From Dictyostelium discoideum (lineage: Eukaryota): 64,000 nucleotides of DNA. Position numbers and translations under genes: made by a program. Location of the stretch: NCBI GenBank assembly GCA_000004695.1, contig CM000153.2, positions 3,232,001 to 3,296,000 on the forward strand, given 5' to 3'. Shown piece after piece: positions 8,792 through 20,893 of this stretch. The notes under the pieces were generated by a model. It was not told where the DNA came from and made no database searches. It saw only the letters and a list, made by a program, of their open reading frames with translations. Every line of letters begins with the position of its first letter. Within the stretch, counting starts at the first letter, position 1.

Positions 8792-11700
8792 ATGGTAAAA
8801 TATCAAATTTATATATTTATTAATTTATTTATATTTATTATAAGAAATTATATAGAAATATAAAAAAATTAAAAAAAAAAATAAAAAAAATAAAAAAAAT
8901 AAAAACACACACATATCCCCATTCCGACTTTTACTAATACTAAAATTAATTTTTTATTTTATTTTAGTCTACAGCAAAATTAGATTTTGTTAGAGCATAT
9001 GAAAAAGAAGTTCAAAATAAATGGGAAAGTGATAAACAATTTGAAATTGATGCATTAGATGCACCAGATGCTGAACATCCAAAATATTTAGCAACATTCC
9101 CATACCCATATATGAATGGAAGATTACATGTTGGTCATGTTTTCACAATCACCAAAGCAGAATTTATGTGTCAATTCCAAAGATTAATGGGTAAAAGAGT
9201 TTTATTCCCATTTGCATTCCATTGTACTGGTATGCCAATTAAAGCATGTGCTGATAAATTAAAGAAAGAAATTGAACAATTTGGTTGTCCACCAGTTTTC
9301 CCAGTTATTGAAGGTAATTAATTAATATATATTATTATTATATATAAAATATTTAGGTTGAATATACTAATTATTATATGTTTATGTATATTTTTCAATG
9401 TAAAATTATGATGATAATAATGACGATGATAACAATAATAATAATGAAAAAAAAAAAAGAAAAACCAATTCAAGAAGTAACAACAGCAGTAAAAGAAGAT
9501 CCACTTTCATTTAAATCAAAGAAAACAAAAGCAGTAGCAAAATCAGGAGGAGCAGTATATCAATGGAAGATTATGCAAAGTTTAGGTATTTCAGATGAAG
9601 AGATTCCAATGTTTGCAGATTCAGCCTATTGGTTAAATTATTTCCCACCACATTGTGAAAGTGATCTTAAATTATTAGGTGTTGGTGTTGATTGGCGTCG
9701 TTCATTCATTACCACTGATGTCAATGGTTATTATGATTCATTTGTTCGTTGGCAATTTGAATCACTCAAAGCATTAGGTAAAGTAAAATATGGTAAACGT
9801 TATTCAATTTGGTCAACAATTGATGATCAACAATGTGCCGATCATGAAAGAGCACAAGGTGAAGGTGTTGGACCACAAAATTATACTCTCATTAAATTAG
9901 AGGTTGTTGAACCAATTCCAGAATGTCTCAAAGAGATTCATTCACAAGGTAAAAAGATTTATTTAGTACCAGGTACATTACGTCCAGAGACAATGTATGG
10001 TCAAACCAATTGTTGGATTCTTCCAACCGGTAAATATGGTGCCTTTGAAATGGCCAATGGTGATATATTTGTTTGCACAGAAAGATCCGCTCGTAATATG
10101 TCATACCAACAAATGACCACCGGTAAGGGTGAATATAAATGTCTCGCCAAATTTGAAGGTTCCGATATTTTAGGTGCCGCTTTAAAAGCCCCATTAGCAA
10201 TCAACCCAATCGTTTACGTCTTACCAATGTTAACCATCGATGAAAATAAAGGTACTGGTGTCGTTACCTCTGTTCCATCAGATTCACCAGACGATTATGC
10301 TTCACTCCAAGATTTAAAAGCAAAAGCACCACTTCGTGCCAAATTCTCAATCAAAGATGAATGGGTTTTACCATTTGAAGTAGTACCAATCATTGATATT
10401 CCAGGCTATTCCAATGAGAGTGCCGTTCGTGCTTACAAGGATTTAGGTATCAAATCACAAAACGATAGAGCTTTACTCGACCAAGCCAAAGATCTTTGCT
10501 ATCAAAAAGGTTTCAATGATGGTGTTATGAGTGTTGGTCCATATGCTGGTCGTAAAGTTTCCGAGGTTAAGAAAATTATCAAGGATGAAATGGTTGCTTC
10601 CGGTCAAGCCGTTGATTACAGTGAACCAACTTCAAAGGTAGTATCACGTTCTGGTGATGAATGTGTCGTTGCTCTCTCTGATCAATGGTATATAAACTAT
10701 GGTGATGATGATATCGAATGGAAGAATCAAACCATTAAACAATTGGAATCAATGGAATTCTATTCAGCTGAAACTAAAAAGAAATTTGAAATCGCTTTAG
10801 GTTGGATGAATCAATGGGCATGTAGTCGTAGTTTTGGTCTTGGTACTCATTTACCATGGGATGAGAAATTCTTAATTGAATCTCTCTCTGACTCTACCAT
10901 CTATATGGCTTTCTATACAGTTGCTCATTTATTACAAGGTGATGTCAATGGTTCAAAACCAGGTAGCGCTGGTATCACTCCAAAACAAATGACCTCTGCC
11001 TGTTGGGATTACGTTTTAATGGGTAAACCATATCCAGAGGGTTGTGAAGTTTCAGAGGAAAAACTTAAAGAACTCAAGAAGGAATTCACCTATTGGTATC
11101 CAGTAGATATTAGAGTATCAGGTGCTGATCTCATTCAAAACCATCTCACCTTTTTCCTCTACACTCACGCTGCAATCTTTGAAAAGAAATTCCAACCAAA
11201 GAGTATTCGTGCCAATGGTTTCGTCAATTTAAATGGTGAAAAAATGTCAAAATCAACTGGTAACTTTTTAACACTCGTTGATTCAGTCGCCAAATTCTCT
11301 GCTGATGGTACTCGTGTCGCTTTAGCCGATGCTGGTGATTCCATTGAAGATGCCAATTTTGTAGATCAAACCGCTGTCACTTCATTATTAAAACTCCACA
11401 CTCAAATTCAATGGGTTCAAGAAACTTTAGACTCTATTGATAAATTCCGTTCTGGTCCATTAGATCGTATTCAAGATACCATCTTTGAGAGTGAAATCAA
11501 CAATATCATTGTAGAATCTGAAAAAGCTTATCAAAAAACCAATTTCCGTGATGCTCTTCATTTAGTATTCTTTGATCTCCAAAATGCTCGTGATCACTAC
11601 AAAGTAACCACCTTAGATCAAATGCACAAGGATCTCGTTTTAAGATTCATTGAAGTTCAAGCTTTATTAATTTATCCAATCGCTCCACATTTTGCTCAAA

Positions 11701-12287
11701 AACTTTTCAATATGCTTGGAAAAGGTAATATCTTAAGTGCCGGTTGGCCAAAAGCTGGTGCAATCGATTATGAAGCTTTGAAAAAGAATAACTATGTTCA
11801 ACAAACCATTTACAATTTCAGAATGAAATTACAAGTTTATCAAAAGGCAAAATTAAAAGGTAAACCAGCTGGTACTAAAGCAATTCCAGATCAATCAACC
11901 ATCATTGTAAGTAAGAGTTATCCAAAATGGCAACAAGATGTCTTGGAATACCTTGCCACCATCTACAATGAAGATTCAAAATCTTTCACAAAAGATAACA
12001 ATGCCATCGCTGAAGAATTATTATCTCGTGAAGAAATGAAACCACATAAAAAAAATCTTATGGGTTTTGTCGCTTCTGCAATTCAAAATGTTAAAGAATC
12101 TGGTAAAGATGCTTTACAAACTTCTCTCTCATTTGATGAAACTTCAACTCTCACTGATAATATTGATTATATTTGTAAAACTTTAGAATTAACTAGTTTC
12201 GATGTTAAAGATTTCAATGAAATCCCTCAAGCTTCTCAATCAAAAATACAACCAATTCCAGGTAAACCACAATTCCAATTTGTTTAA
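8792..12287 (+). CDS. leuS: Cytoplasmic leucyl-tRNA synthetase. Exons about 8792..8794 (ATG only), 8968..9313, 9460..12287.
   Basis: The spliced product is M|[43 protein letters not shown] (class I HIGH motif) ... [11 protein letters not shown] (KMSKS). It is collinear with human LARS1 along the whole length. Intron 1 follows ATG|GTAAAA and ends at the acceptor ttttag at 8966/67. Intron 2 follows GAAG|GTAATT and ends at the only in-frame AG, at 9458/59 after an A12 run (unusual). The stop is at 12287. Confidence 0.85.
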
Positions 12288-16820: not shown

Positions 16821-17270
16821 TTTTTTTATTAATATTTTTTTTTTTAAAATTATTTTATTGTGAATTTTTTTTTTTTTTTTAAATTAAAATAATAATAATT
16901 TCAATAAATTAGAAAGAATAATAATAATTAATATTGAAAATTTAATTAGTAATTTTAGTTTACTTCAATCAATTAGAACTTCAAAAAAATTTATATAAAA
17001 AAAAAAAAGAAAATAAAAAAAAGAGTTTATCAAAAATAAAATAAATAAACAAAAAAAAAAAGTTTATCAAAATTAAAATAAATAAAAAAAAAATTTGTTT
17101 AGAAAAAAAAAAAAAAAAAAAGTCAGTCAAAAAAAAAAAAAAGTGACTCATGCTTAGGGCCAAAAAAAAAAAAGAAAAAATTCAAAAAATTCAAAAAAAA
17201 AAAAATCAAAAAAGATGAACTTTTTGAATTTTTTTTATTATTATTATTGTAAATAGTAACAACAATCACA

Positions 17271-17957
17271 ATGAATAAATTTTTAATTGCATTATTGGTA
17301 TTAGCCACATTAGCAGTTTCATTTTCACAAGAAATTGGTGTTTCAATTTTAAAAACTGATACACCAAAAGGTGAATGTAAAGGTAAAACTGCCTCAATTG
17401 GTGATTATATCAGTTTAAAATATGTTGGTAAATTCGAAGACGGAACTGTCTTTGACTCCTCTGAGATTCACGGAGGTTTCAGCTTTAACTTCACCATTGG
17501 AGAACGTAAGTTAGTTGTACAAAAAAGTAAAATATAAAAAATAAAAAAAAAAAGATATTGACACCAAAAATAAATAAATGAATAAATAAAAATTATAAAA
17601 TATATAGGTAAAGTTATTCCAGGTTTAGAGATTGGTACAATTAATATTTGTGAAGGTGAAAAACGTTCAATCAAGATTCCATATCAATTAGCATACGGTG
17701 AAAATGGTATTGAAAATGCAATTCCACCACGTACAGATATTTATTTTGATTTGGAGGTTGTTTCAATCGAAGGAGCACCAGCTCAACCATTTTATTATCA
17801 ATTAATTCCATCAGTTGGTACCATCATTGCTTTTTCAATGTTAGCTGGTTTCATAGTTTTAGTTAAATTCATCATTAAACGTTATCCAGATGAATCAAAT
17901 TCTAAAAAACCAGCCCCAGGTAAACCAAAGAAAACAAAAGCAGCAAAACAAAACTAA
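17271..17957 (+). CDS. FKBP-type peptidyl-prolyl cis-trans isomerase with an N-terminal signal peptide and a C-terminal TM anchor. Exons 17271..17505 and 17608..17957.
   Basis: MNKFLIALLVLATLAVSFS is a signal peptide. The FKBP core runs GDYISLKYVGKFEDGTVFDSS...GERKVIPGLEIGTINICEGEKRSIKIPYQLAYGENGIENAIPPRTDIYFDLEVVSIE. It is followed by a TM helix (IIAFSMLAGFIVLVKFII) and a basic tail. The intron has a AAC|GTAAGT donor and a tatatag acceptor, with phase 1 consistent. Confidence 0.85.
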
Positions 17958-18349
17958 AATAAATAAATAAATAAATAAAAAATACAACTATCAAGATAAT
18001 AAAATCAAATAATTTTTTCATTAATTTATTTATGAATATTTTTAAAAAGTTTAATTCTATAAATTATTGATTAATAAATTCTTTGCATTAATGCATTGAT
18101 CCTAATCTATCTGAATTATTATTATTATTATTATTATTATTTCCTACTCTCAAAATAAAAAAATAATTAGAAAAAAGAATGATAAATAATTAAATTCTAA
18201 AGAAAAAAAAAAAAAATTATGATGAAGTAAGTTAAAAAAATAAAAATATAAAATAAAATATAATAAAAAATAATAATTAATTAAATTTAAAAATAGATTA
18301 ATCAATAAATAAATAAATAAATGAACAAATAAATGAAAAACTTTGTTTT

Positions 18350-18500
18350 TTACACTGCCAACGCGCAAAATGACAACGTAACCCCTGTAAGCGGCTAATA
18401 GCCCTGTAAGACGAACAGACGGATTTTTGGGATATTTTGGAACACTGTTGTAAGGTTTACAGGGGTTATGTAGTCATTTAAATTGATCCACTAAGTTGGT
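18350..18500. other. GC-rich island of about 150 bp with a 12-bp inverted repeat, TAACCCCTGTAA at 18379-90 and TTACAGGGGTTA at 18457-68. It is a candidate structured ncRNA or mobile-element remnant at the duplication junction.
   Basis: A sharp compositional break from the flanks: acgcgcaaaatgacaacgtaacccctgtaagcggctaatagccctgtaagacgaacagacggatttttgggat.... It holds direct repeats of CCCTGTAAG. On the minus strand there is a TCCCAAAA motif that resembles the Dictyostelium DUSE element upstream of ncRNA genes. No ORF. Confidence 0.3.
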
Positions 18501-18599
18501 GCAGTGAAATTAAATGATAAGTGAGGAAATCAATTAATTCTGTTTGATAATAATAATAATAAAAATAATAATAATGAGTAAATAAATAAATGAATAAAT

Positions 18600-18916
18600 A
18601 AATAAATAAAAATTATAAAATATATAGGTAAATTAGAAGATGTAATTATCTTTGATTCGTCAGATTTACATGGCGCGGCTTTAATTTCACACGTACAGAT
18701 ATTTACTTTGATTTGGAAGTTGTTTCAATCGAAGGAGCACCAGCTCAATCATTTTATTTTCAATTAATTCCATCAGTTGGTACCATCATTGCTTTTTCAA
18801 TGTTAGCTGGTTTCATAGTTTTAGTTAAATTCATCATTAAACGTTATCCAGATGAATCAAATTCTAAAAAACCAGCCCCAGGTAAACCAAAGAAAACAAA
18901 ACTAAAACTAAAATAA
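18600..18916 (+). pseudogene. Truncated FKBP copy. A degenerate exon-1 fragment is fused directly to the 3' end of exon 2, so the isomerase domain is deleted.
   Basis: ggtaaattagaagatgtaattatctttgattcgtcagatttacatggcgcggctttaatttcacacgtacagatatttac aligns, with many substitutions, to ggtaaattcgaagacggaactgtctttgactcctctgagattcacggaggtttcagc of exon 1. It then joins ..gatatttactttgatttggaagttgtttcaatcgaaggagcaccagctcaa.., which is the TM tail. The residual ORF 18713..18916 encodes only the TM tail. Confidence 0.6.
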
Positions 18917-19051
18917 AACTAAAATAAATAAATAAATAAAAACACAATTATCGAGATAATAAAATCAAGTAATAATTTTTTCATTTATTTATGAATATTT
19001 TTAAAAAAGGTTAATTCTATAAATTATTGGTTATTTAATAAATTCTTTACA

Positions 19052-20050
19052 TTAATCCATTGATTCTAATCTATCTGAATTATTATTATTATTATTATTA
19101 TTATTATTTCCCAAGATCGGCCTAAATAAATTATCATTTTCATTATCATTATTGCTAATATTTATTGATTCACTTAAGTCATCAATTGAATTACTATTTA
19201 CAATACTATTTCCTCCATCGCTACTATTTATACTATTATTTATATTATTTATATTATTATTATTATTATCAATACTAATATTATCAATTATATTATTATT
19301 TATATTTTTATTTATTGGACTATTATCATTTATTCCAATACTAGTTGAACCACTACTGCCACCACTACCACTACCACTTGCAATATTATTATTATTATTA
19401 TTATTATTATTGGTATTGTTATTATTATTATTACCACTTGATAAAATTTGATAAGAATTTGAATTTTGAAATAAATTATGAACTATTGGTAATAATCTTG
19501 TACCACTAATTGAAATTGATAATAGGGAGAAGAAAACAAAGATTATCCAAAATACGCTTAACCAATTTGGTAAATAACTTAGATGATGTAAATTTAAGAG
19601 GAATCCAACTGTTGATTTCTCCATACCAATTGCATTTCTACAGAATCTATAGATTCCACCTGTCAATGCCATGAACAATAATAAGAAGAAAATAACCGAT
19701 CCATAACGATGATGATATTCACGCATTGATTGTGGTATCCATCTACTACGACTTGTTAATTTACCAGTTCTACTACCAAATAGTGGATTGTAAATCATTG
19801 AATATCCAAATACAACCAATGCTACACATAGAATCATCAATAGAAATGTATATACAACTTCACTATTTTCAAATAACCATGACATTTGATGAATCTTCAT
19901 TAAAAATGATACCTTTTCTTTTGGAATTCCAAATCCATCTCTTAATATTTTATATAGTAATCCTGTTATCATTGTTGTCATCAATGGTAATATTATTGTA
20001 TACGCTATATACCTATGAAGTATCCTTTTATTCCAATACATTCTACCCAT
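19052..20050 (-). CDS. Multi-pass (about 4 TM) membrane protein with an Asn/Ser-rich C-terminal tail. Hypothetical.
   Basis: A single ORF from ATG 20050. It has four strongly hydrophobic segments (YTIILPLMTTMITGLLY, VVYTFLLMILCVALVVFGY, VIFFLLLFMALTGGIY, VFWIIFVFFSLLSISI), followed by a poly-N/S tail from (AAT)n. Its 3' end lies in duplication unit B. Confidence 0.55.
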   Translation of the reverse strand: MGRMYWNKRILHRYIAYTIILPLMTTMITGLLYKILRDGFGIPKEKVSFLMKIHQMSWLFENSEVVYTFLLMILCVALVVFGYSMIYNPLFGSRTGKLTSRSRWIPQSMREYHHRYGSVIFFLLLFMALTGGIYRFCRNAIGMEKSTVGFLLNLHHLSYLPNWLSVFWIIFVFFSLLSISISGTRLLPIVHNLFQNSNSYQILSSGNNNNNNTNNNNNNNNNIASGSGSGGSSGSTSIGINDNSPINKNINNNIIDNISIDNNNNNINNINNSINSSDGGNSIVNSNSIDDLSESINISNNDNENDNLFRPILGNNNNNNNNNNSDRLESMD

Positions 20051-20893
20051 TTCTCTTTTATCTATTTACAATTATTTATTATTTATTATTATTTATTATT
20101 ATTATTATTATTATTTTTTTTTTTTTTTGTTTTTCTAAAAAAAAAAAAAAAAAAAATTTATTATTTAATTTTTATTTTTGTTTTATAATAGTAATTATTA
20201 TATGTTTAATAATTATTATTATTTATGTGTAATTTTTTTTTTTTTTTGATTTAATATGAAAATAATTTTAACTTTTATTTGAAAAATTAAGATCAAATGC
20301 AAATAAACAAAAAAACAAAAAAACAAAAAAAAAAAAAAAAAAAAAATTTGAGAAAAAAAAAAATATGAAAATAAAAAAAAATTAAAAATAAAAATAAATT
20401 AAAATATGAAAATTAAAAAAAATTAAAATTAAAATTTAAATTGGTAATGGTATAAAAAACCCAAATATTTAAAAAAAAATAAAAAAAAAAATAAAAAAAA
20501 TAAAAAAAAAAAAAAAAAAGTTATTATTAGGGGGATTGGATAATATTAAATCTGAATTCTAGATTCTGTTATTATTACAATTAAATTTCTTGAAAATTAA
20601 AAGATTTAATTTCATTAAAATATAATATTATTTAGTTATATTAAATTTATTTGATAAAAAAAATAATTTGTTTAATTCTTTATTTTTATATTTTTAAAAA
20701 ATTAAATTATTTTTTTTTTTTTTTTTTAATCCAAATGTTTTTCAAAATCCAACCCAAATTAAGGATTTTGAATTTTTTTTTTTTCATGAATCCACCACTT
20801 ACTTTCATTGAATCTATTGTTTTTTATTTTTATTTTTTTTTATTTTTTTTTTAAATTTTTTTTCAAGTTTTTTCATTTTTTTTTTAAAAATAA

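Follow-up and report, generated by a model that had tools for sequence, protein, structure and literature searches.

When a gene is followed, within about a kilobase, by a nearly identical piece of itself, what is that piece, and does the near identity mean that it arose recently? The question is raised by impA/fkbp3, a gene of Dictyostelium discoideum AX4 for an FK506-binding protein (FKBP), and by its convergent neighbor DDB_G0285739. Both lie in a 64,000-nucleotide stretch of contig CM000153.2 (assembly GCA_000004695.1, positions 3,232,001 to 3,296,000, forward strand), which is called the window here and from whose first letter all positions are counted. A preliminary description had seen at this place a young, partial tandem duplication that left behind a domain-deleted FKBP pseudogene. 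Our short answer is that the downstream copy is the object that dictyBase names impA_ps, a duplicated, non-processed pseudogene fragment that is already known as an annotation, and that the duplication is not young, being older than its 98% identical core implies. We consider it probable that a local duplication, made before AX4 separated from two divergent isolates (L005 and L006), became a mosaic by template switching or ectopic repair, that L005 and L006 later lost most of it, that the tail in AX4 was touched up by gene conversion, and that a non-functional fragment is what remains.

Is the repeat real? Gapped local alignment and a repeat finder (families D11, D17, and D19 cover the duplication) both place a recurrence of 17568-18141 at 18588-19105, offset by 962-1020 bp, which bears out the earlier claim of a duplication roughly 1 kb downstream; the pairwise alignment consists of long stretches that are not of low complexity. 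The 3' end of the impA intron (17568-17612 versus 18588-18632) is identical at 43 of 45 positions and the tail of exon 2 (17728-17939 versus 18690-18901) at 208 of 212, and the 3' untranslated region (3'UTR) together with the end of the convergent gene is about 90-95% identical between the copies, with four small indels. A BLAST search of copy 1 against the whole window, with the low-complexity (dust) filter on, returned exactly one extra copy (E = 6e-172). Because these matches are long and unique, similarity through low complexity is rejected as the cause of the repeat. The stretch 17000-20200 is matched at 100% identity by a second, independently made chromosome-level assembly of D. discoideum (L004), and the repeat is therefore not an artefact of assembly.

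What was there to be copied? On the forward strand, 17271-17505 spliced to 17608-17957 encodes 194 amino acids (aa) that are 100% identical to FK506-binding protein 3 of AX4 (FKBP3_DICDI, Q54N80); in a gene list with dictyBase names, DDB_G0285455 is impA and DDB_G0285457 is impA_ps. Exon 1 (17271..17505) runs from the signal peptide to halfway through the FKBP domain. The intron (17506..17607, GTAAGT...TATAG) contributes its last 45-55 nucleotides (about 17558-17607) to copy 2. Exon 2 (17608..17957, with the stop codon at 17955-17957) carries the second half of the domain at 17613-17727, which is not in copy 2, and then a linker, a transmembrane (TM) segment, and a basic tail (17728-17939, E1), which are duplicated. 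The protein has a signal-like N-terminus and, over residues 39-129, a match to positions 3-93 of the 94 in the profile of Pfam family PF00254 (FKBP_C, E = 5.9e-24); a Kyte-Doolittle scan locates its TM segment between residues 150 and 168.

Behind impA lies U1 (17958..18087, forward strand), its 3'UTR and flank, which is copy 1 of a once-shared intergenic region and aligns with 18917-19051 as well as with the one intergenic region that each outgroup has. It is followed on the minus strand by R1 (18088..18146), a dead stub of the 3' end of DDB_G0285739 that closes with NNNNSDRLGSMH and a stop codon. R1 differs from the live copy by a 4-bp deletion and three substitutions and reads NNSDRLGSMH, then stop, where the live gene ends in NNSDRLESMD; the stop-containing remnant of the neighbor that had been noticed in copy 1 is thus located at 18088-18146. 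The live gene (Q54N78; 19052..20050, minus strand) encodes a multi-pass membrane protein of 332 aa in which no Pfam domain was found.

How is copy 2 put together? Its parts follow one another as intron 3' end, exon-1 piece, tail, altered C-terminus, second intergenic copy, and finally the live 3' end of DDB_G0285739. The first piece (18549..18632, forward strand) is the 3' end of the intron with AG/GTAAA, matching robustly from 18588 onward and more weakly over 18549-18587. The second, D (18633..18689, forward strand), is a 57-nucleotide fossil of the middle of exon 1 that reads GKLEDVIIFDSSDLHGAA; its present-day counterpart is exon 1 at 17427-17495, and it occupies the place of the domain's missing second half (17613-17727). 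A tblastn search aligns D with FKBP residues 51-69 (E = 8e-4, 58% identity over 19 residues). The third piece, E2 (18690..18901, forward strand), is the tail of exon 2 (RTDIYFDLEVV...TM...KKTK), joined in frame to the exon-1 piece (FNFT/RTDIYF). Then comes U2 (18902..19051), comprising the altered C-terminal end and copy 2 of the intergenic region, which now serves as the 3' flank of DDB_G0285739.

Both joints of D fall at short, imperfect homologies. On the intron side, AAAATATATAGGTAAA (17597-17612, in copy 2 18617-18632) resembles AAAATATGTTGGTAAA of exon 1 (17417-17432) at 13 of 16 positions; at the second joint, the ancestral exon-1 form AATTTCAC resembles AATTCCAC of exon 2 (17720) at 7 of 8, and AX4 exon 1 now reads AACTTCAC at 17487 in its place. 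The exon-1 source of D is found about 190 bp upstream from the point of the switch. As the pieces stand in the order intron, exon 1, exon 2, deletions alone from a collinear copy cannot have produced copy 2. The preliminary description was right that the isomerase part is excised (exon-2 positions 17613-17727) and that a diverged exon-1 fragment, now placed at 18633-18689, is fused to the TM-tail region. It had the copy start at the end of exon 1; the copy in fact begins within the intron, whose piece precedes one from the middle of exon 1. Nor is the arrangement strictly tandem, since a non-homologous spacer of some 400 bp separates the copies and copy 2 is out of gene order. A paralogous FKBP was considered as the donor of D and rejected: the protein search returned no close paralogue, and beyond the orthologues the next matches are at most 49% identical.

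Can such a mosaic still be a gene? Its coding capacity is disabled: the domain is missing, D carries a 4-nucleotide deletion that throws its remainder out of frame with the tail, and no ATG in frame occurs until the middle of the TM segment. The reading frame of the tail does not open until 18656; the earliest ATG in it, at 18800, falls inside that segment. The open reading frame singled out earlier (18713..18916) does belong to the tail frame, but it starts at a TTG rather than where the frame opens or at its first ATG. The tail of copy 2 has an altered end (KTKLKLK, with the stop at 18914-18916). This results from an indel at 18896-18916 that changed KTKAAKQN, then stop, into KTKLKLK, then stop, by chance a di-lysine ending of the KxKxx type; in a pseudogene, that ending is probably meaningless.

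The AX4 gene model DDB_G0285457, join(18219..18226, 18664..18916) on the forward strand, gives 86 aa and its translation matches the annotated protein exactly; it requires an 8-nucleotide first exon, ATGATGAA, and a 437-nucleotide intron, about three times the length of that of impA. No Pfam family is found above threshold in the 86-aa product, and neither this product nor the D-frame peptide shows FKBP_C even at E <= 1. In a newer annotation of the identical sequence (L004, GCA_054883475.1, 6688-7781), no gene is called at copy 2. The entry that is still a "hypothetical protein" at NCBI and UniProt (XP_638064 / Q54N79) is an annotation artefact, built on the 8-nucleotide exon. The earlier description of a domain-deleted FKBP pseudogene therefore holds, as FKBP_C is lacking and dictyBase independently names the copy-2 model impA_ps; a gene list from a study by restriction enzyme-mediated integration sequencing (REMI-seq; PMC8386026) likewise carries DDB_G0285457 under a "_ps" name. 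The accompanying forecast of a TM-tail-only peptide, if expressed, fares less well, given the missing native ATG upstream of the TM segment, the 8-nucleotide exon in the model, and the silence of the newer annotation.

The copy is non-processed in kind: the intron 3' end (43/45), the 3'UTR, and the end of a gene on the opposite strand are all included. A processed pseudogene (retrocopy) is ruled out by the presence of both intron sequence and the neighbor's 3' end. Taken together, these features of the sequence lead us to infer that the impA_ps fragment is non-functional. Two RNA-seq supplements do not contain the DDB_G0285457 identifier, nor those of the parent and the neighbor, and these files are uninformative on expression.

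How old is the duplication? Orthologous loci were retrieved through the FKBP orthologues. The gap between the FKBP gene and its neighbor is 1095 bp in the window and in L004, both of the AX4 type, where the region is duplicated with the FKBP fragment. It is about 535 bp in L005 and L006, divergent "D. discoideum" isolates in which the intergenic region is duplicated and the FKBP fragment is absent: they have two U copies, and the second tail, D, the intron piece, and a hairpin island in the spacer (see below) are all missing. The other six loci are single copy, with gaps of 331 bp in D. citrinum, 141 and 175 bp in two D. cf. discoideum isolates (L002 and L009), 159 bp in D. purpureum, 258 bp in D. 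dimigraforme, and 339 bp in D. firmibasis.

Between AX4 and L005/L006, the identity of U1 to U1 is 0.93 and that of U2 to U2 is 0.945, with 0.84-0.905 for the paralogues. Copy 1 bears the same marks in both lineages, namely a 4-bp deletion, an indel near CAAATAA, and three substitutions by which LESMD, then stop, became LGSMH or LGSMR, then stop; the indels and substitutions specific to copy 2 are likewise common to both. This orthologous grouping and the shared copy-specific marks mean that the duplication predates the split between AX4 and L005/L006, whose FKBP genes differ by a synonymous divergence (pS) of about 0.09 over 130 synonymous sites. The duplication had been called young, and that age must be given up on two further counts: D keeps ancestral bases, and the 98% core and its AX4 parent differ at four positions, no fewer than the three that separate either of them from the L005 orthologue.

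The L005/L006 loci also show how far the original block extended. Their stub reaches further than that of AX4, into sequence homologous to window 19188-19250, and holds an exact 21-mer, GAATTACTATTTACAATACTA, of window 19188-19208, about 130 bp inside DDB_G0285739; in the window, this 21-mer is flanked by TGAATTA repeats at 19076 and 19187. The original block must therefore have reached to at least about 19250, taking in roughly the last 60-65 codons of DDB_G0285739, and the two lineages have lost different internal parts of the stub.

The two isolates deserve a word of their own. L005 and L006 (GCA_054859355.1 and GCA_054859385.1) are labelled D. discoideum and differ from AX4 by about 10% of their DNA at this locus, and their FKBP clusters with the D. 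citrinum protein (90% identity), not with that of AX4. This looks like the divergence of a separate species or a cryptic lineage.

Why, then, is the core so similar? Copy 2 is very uneven, with the identity of its parts to the parent ranging from 69% to 98%. D is 69% identical to AX4 exon 1, 75% to that of L005, 77% to D. citrinum, and 86% to D. firmibasis, its best match. It keeps the ancestral TCA, TTA, and GAT and is without the exon-1 changes common to AX4 and L005 (TCC, GAG, and TTA to ATT), and its origin therefore predates their split. The tail is another matter. Over its 212 positions, E1 and E2 differ at four, E1 and L005 at three, and E2 and L005 at three, a star-like pattern, and the tail evolves slowly in all lineages compared. 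The two changes private to E1 are synonymous and the two private to E2 are non-synonymous (P to S and Y to F); three substitutions that arose on the stem of AX4 and L005 (ATC, GGA, and ATA) are also present in E2.

D has collected about nine private substitutions in 57 bp, as against two in the 212 bp of E2 (Fisher's exact p = 2e-5). Had E2 been neutral since an origin at or before the split, 6-19 private changes would be predicted, with pS(AX4-L005) taken as 0.06-0.09; the probability of seeing two or fewer is then 0.06 to 1e-6. The high-identity tract (208/212) is bounded by D, at about 70%, and by U, at about 90% with indels. From this pattern, E2 and the 45-nucleotide intron piece, both of which have partners in register in copy 1, were probably reset by interlocus gene conversion, with the tract ending at the flanking heterologies; D, having no partner in register, drifted freely.

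The history that we favor as the probable one would then run as follows. A block of about 0.8 kb, at the meeting 3' ends of impA/fkbp3 and DDB_G0285739, was duplicated locally in the D. discoideum stem lineage, once the two "D. cf. discoideum" isolates had branched off but before AX4 and L005/L006 separated. Each gene retained one working copy of the shared 3' region, leaving the remainder as junk, that is, a stub of DDB_G0285739 behind impA and impA_ps in front of the 3' end of DDB_G0285739. The joints probably formed by template switching or ectopic repair at homeologies during the duplication or soon after it, in the manner of microhomology-mediated break-induced replication (MMBIR) or fork stalling and template switching (FoSTeS); the facts are also compatible with a simpler duplicate that underwent ectopic repair early on. 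The spacer with its island may be filler or a later insertion. L005 and L006 would later have lost everything from the island to the tail, the intron and exon-1 pieces included, and the 96-98% identity of the AX4 tail and intron piece would be owed to slow evolution of the tail and probable gene conversion.

Several observations pull the other way. E1 and E2 share no derived base private to AX4 (0 of 2 informative sites), so that gene conversion is not demonstrated, and the E1-E2 distance of four is not below the E1-L005 distance of three. Sites are few, and the neutral rate is calibrated on only 130 synonymous ones. D is somewhat above neutral divergence, with P(>=9) = 0.06-0.001 by assumed age. 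The spacer and island, for which no source was found, keep the left breakpoint of the original event from being placed.

Which other explanations deserve to be weighed? The main rival is an origin in two steps, which we regard as unlikely. An old duplication of U only, as in L005, would have been followed in AX4 alone by repair or break-induced replication primed in U2 that copied leftward from copy 1 through the tail, took exon 1 and after it the intron as new templates, and ended by capturing foreign DNA (the island). It accounts for the low divergence of E2: L005 and L006 do have U1 and U2 without the tail, D, the intron piece, and the island; E2 and the intron piece are 2-4% diverged against 9.5% plus indels for U1 and U2; E2 bears substitutions that arose on the stem of AX4 and L005; and a series of template switches at homeologies gives a natural reading of how the pieces are ordered. 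What it fails to account for is the ancestral character of D, since a piece copied after the split should resemble AX4 exon 1, whereas D lacks the AX4+L005 exon-1 changes and has about nine private changes in 57 bp; it would therefore need extremely error-prone synthesis or a foreign donor. A young and simple tandem duplication of part of the locus, from which the isomerase domain was later cut out, would suit the 98% identical core and the absence of the duplication from six related species or isolates. We rate it as highly improbable, because lineages about 9% apart at synonymous sites share it with its copy-specific derived characters, D is ancient, about 400 bp of unrelated spacer keeps the copies from abutting, and the order intron, exon 1, exon 2 cannot be reached by deletion alone.

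A different objection is that copy 2 is no relic at all but a functional gene for a small membrane-anchored peptide (86 aa; linker, TM segment, and a basic tail ending in KLKLK) whose tail is under purifying selection. The scarcity of private changes in E2 (two in 212 bp against a neutral expectation of 6-19) would follow, the reading frame of the tail is intact through the TM segment to the stop, the joint between the exon-1 and exon-2 pieces is in frame, and the AX4 annotation did predict a protein. Both private changes of E2 are, however, non-synonymous, there is no native start codon and the model leans on an 8-nucleotide exon and a 437-nucleotide intron, and the whole fragment is gone from L005 and L006. 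The newer annotation calls nothing and dictyBase curates a pseudogene. Selection on a peptide would also leave unexplained why the non-coding intron piece is equally conserved (43/45), and we hold a working gene to be very unlikely. As for the possibility that the AX4 reference has collapsed or wrongly joined a repeat, nothing speaks for it except the general difficulty of assembling AT-rich DNA. With 3.2 kb identical in an independent chromosome-level assembly, and with the U duplication common to two further, independently assembled isolates, the chance of this is close to nil.

What lies between the two copies? The spacer (18147..18548) measures 402 bp, and its portion at 18147-18339 is A-rich with 9% GC. 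It has no counterpart in the outgroup loci and no significant similarity, on either strand, to the FKBP upstream region, exon 1, or the 5' end of the intron, judged by Smith-Waterman scores against dinucleotide shuffles. The idea that it derives by decay from the promoter, exon 1, or 5' intron end of the FKBP gene is accordingly discarded, the scores being within those of the shuffles except for an ATT-repeat match, and a match of "GAA-GTAAGTTA" to the exon-1/intron boundary was judged unconvincing. Against the L005 junction, only about the first 35 bp (about 18147-18180) align, the rest not being significantly similar. A BLAST hint that the AX4 and L005 spacers are related by an inversion was not significant against shuffles and was dropped. 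L005 (5040-5075) and L006 (5043-5078) have a short, GC-richer spacer patch of their own (..TTCTGAAGAGCAACGAGAGGGAATAT..), which is unrelated to the island of AX4.

That island (18340..18506) is a stretch of about 165 nucleotides with 40% GC set inside the 9% GC spacer, and it is absent from L005 and L006. An inner inverted repeat of 23 bp (18368-18390 and 18457-18479) pairs at 21 of 23 positions, an outer stem of 10 bp joins 18353-18362 to 18495-18506, and the predicted fold has an energy of -48.7 kcal/mol (z = -3.8). A tRNA scan found no tRNA, and Rfam 15 gave nothing at gathering thresholds, the best permissive match having E = 1.7. By BLAST, there is no second copy in the window or in nine related loci (about 90 kb); degenerate-pattern scans of metagenome and prokaryote genome collections found no exact match to the stem arms; a full-text sequence search returned only Schizosaccharomyces pombe telomere repeats; and a Dictyostelium microRNA supplement contained no match. 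The terminal inverted repeats expected of a transposon such as a miniature inverted-repeat transposable element (MITE) are present (23 bp, 21/23), and no obvious target-site duplication was seen on reading the flanks. Candidates for the identity of the island are a MITE, captured filler DNA, and an undescribed RNA gene.

Two further observations concern the surroundings. Exon 1 of impA in AX4 has itself changed a good deal, with about ten AX4-private changes in the 57 bp of 17439-17495. Among them, six consecutive bases at 17478-17483 have been replaced (GCACCA to TTCAGC), turning the loop GGAPF into GGFSF. GGAPF is kept in L005/L006, D. citrinum, and D. firmibasis, and the AX4 form is a clustered multi-nucleotide change in a variable loop of FKBPs. 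Gene conversion with D as the donor of this cluster is ruled out, as the two share no derived states. In the window as a whole, which is D. discoideum AX4 DNA, GC content is 15-29% in most 2-kb bins; the bin at 10001-12000 stands well above these at 37% and may contain a highly expressed gene or a repeat element.

What should be made of all this? The biological weight is small, for this is an ordinary, small, decayed duplicate that dictyBase has already flagged as a pseudogene. There is a practical side: reads from the impA tail will multi-map to 18690-18901, which can distort expression estimates, and the same copy can interfere with knock-out or REMI design at impA. The locus is also a compact example that high identity between duplicates need not mean youth, with a 57-bp fossil at about 70% beside a 212-bp tract at 98%, and it could help, as a small natural marker, in studies of how Dictyostelium carries out ectopic gene conversion and microhomology-mediated repair. 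In the full-text literature, the identifier DDB_G0285457 is in no paper text and nothing relevant was found on impA or FKBP in Dictyostelium; nor did the literature text yield a match for the mosaic structure, the DDB_G0285739 stub, the age of the event, the reduced form in L005/L006, or the uneven divergence. The order and joints of the mosaic, the reciprocal stubs, the age before the split, the reduced form, and the contrast in divergence thus appear to be undescribed.

Only two loose ends have some potential, namely the hairpin island and the uncoupling of tightly convergent genes. In all single-copy relatives, the stop codons of the convergent pair are only 141-339 bp apart. We would give a small chance, and not a larger one, to the idea that the duplication was kept since it uncoupled the two genes and that, separately, the hairpin is an undescribed structured RNA or mobile element. 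If so, separate 3'UTR and terminator copies for impA and DDB_G0285739 would relieve transcriptional or antisense interference, and uncoupling would account for the retention of U1 and U2 in both D. discoideum lineages while the rest decays.

How does the locus compare with systems that are already known? Human FKBP11 consists of a signal peptide, one FKBP domain, and a C-terminal TM segment, and impA/fkbp3 has the same architecture as these membrane-anchored FKBPs of the secretory pathway. Copy 2 differs in having only the linker, the TM segment, the tail, and a frame-shifted, 19-codon fossil of the domain, and it is not an FKBP. In its resemblance to interlocus gene conversion, the core offers a 212-bp tract of 98% identity with heterologies on both sides (D on the left, the C-terminal indel on the right) and flanks that are 10-30% diverged; it departs from the usual picture in that the copies have no AX4-private base in common and the paralogues are no closer than the orthologues.

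As in MMBIR and FoSTeS, we find a non-collinear patchwork of nearby segments, joints at imperfect homologies of 8-16 nucleotides (13/16 and 7/8), a short stretch whose template lies about 190 bp upstream, and unrelated filler at one junction. The difference is that the mechanism has to be read from an old product whose junctions have since mutated, and to which sequential ectopic conversions or deletions may instead have led. The impA_ps of dictyBase is the same object as copy 2, and its annotation only flags a pseudogene. The copy also resembles the duplicated pseudogene fragments of small segmental duplications: it was made at the DNA level, brings along intron sequence and a piece of an opposite-strand neighbor, lies beside its parent, and is truncated and without a start codon. 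What sets this one apart is its very small size, about 0.5 kb, and the fact that the block spans the junction of two convergent genes, so that one event led to two reciprocal gene stubs.

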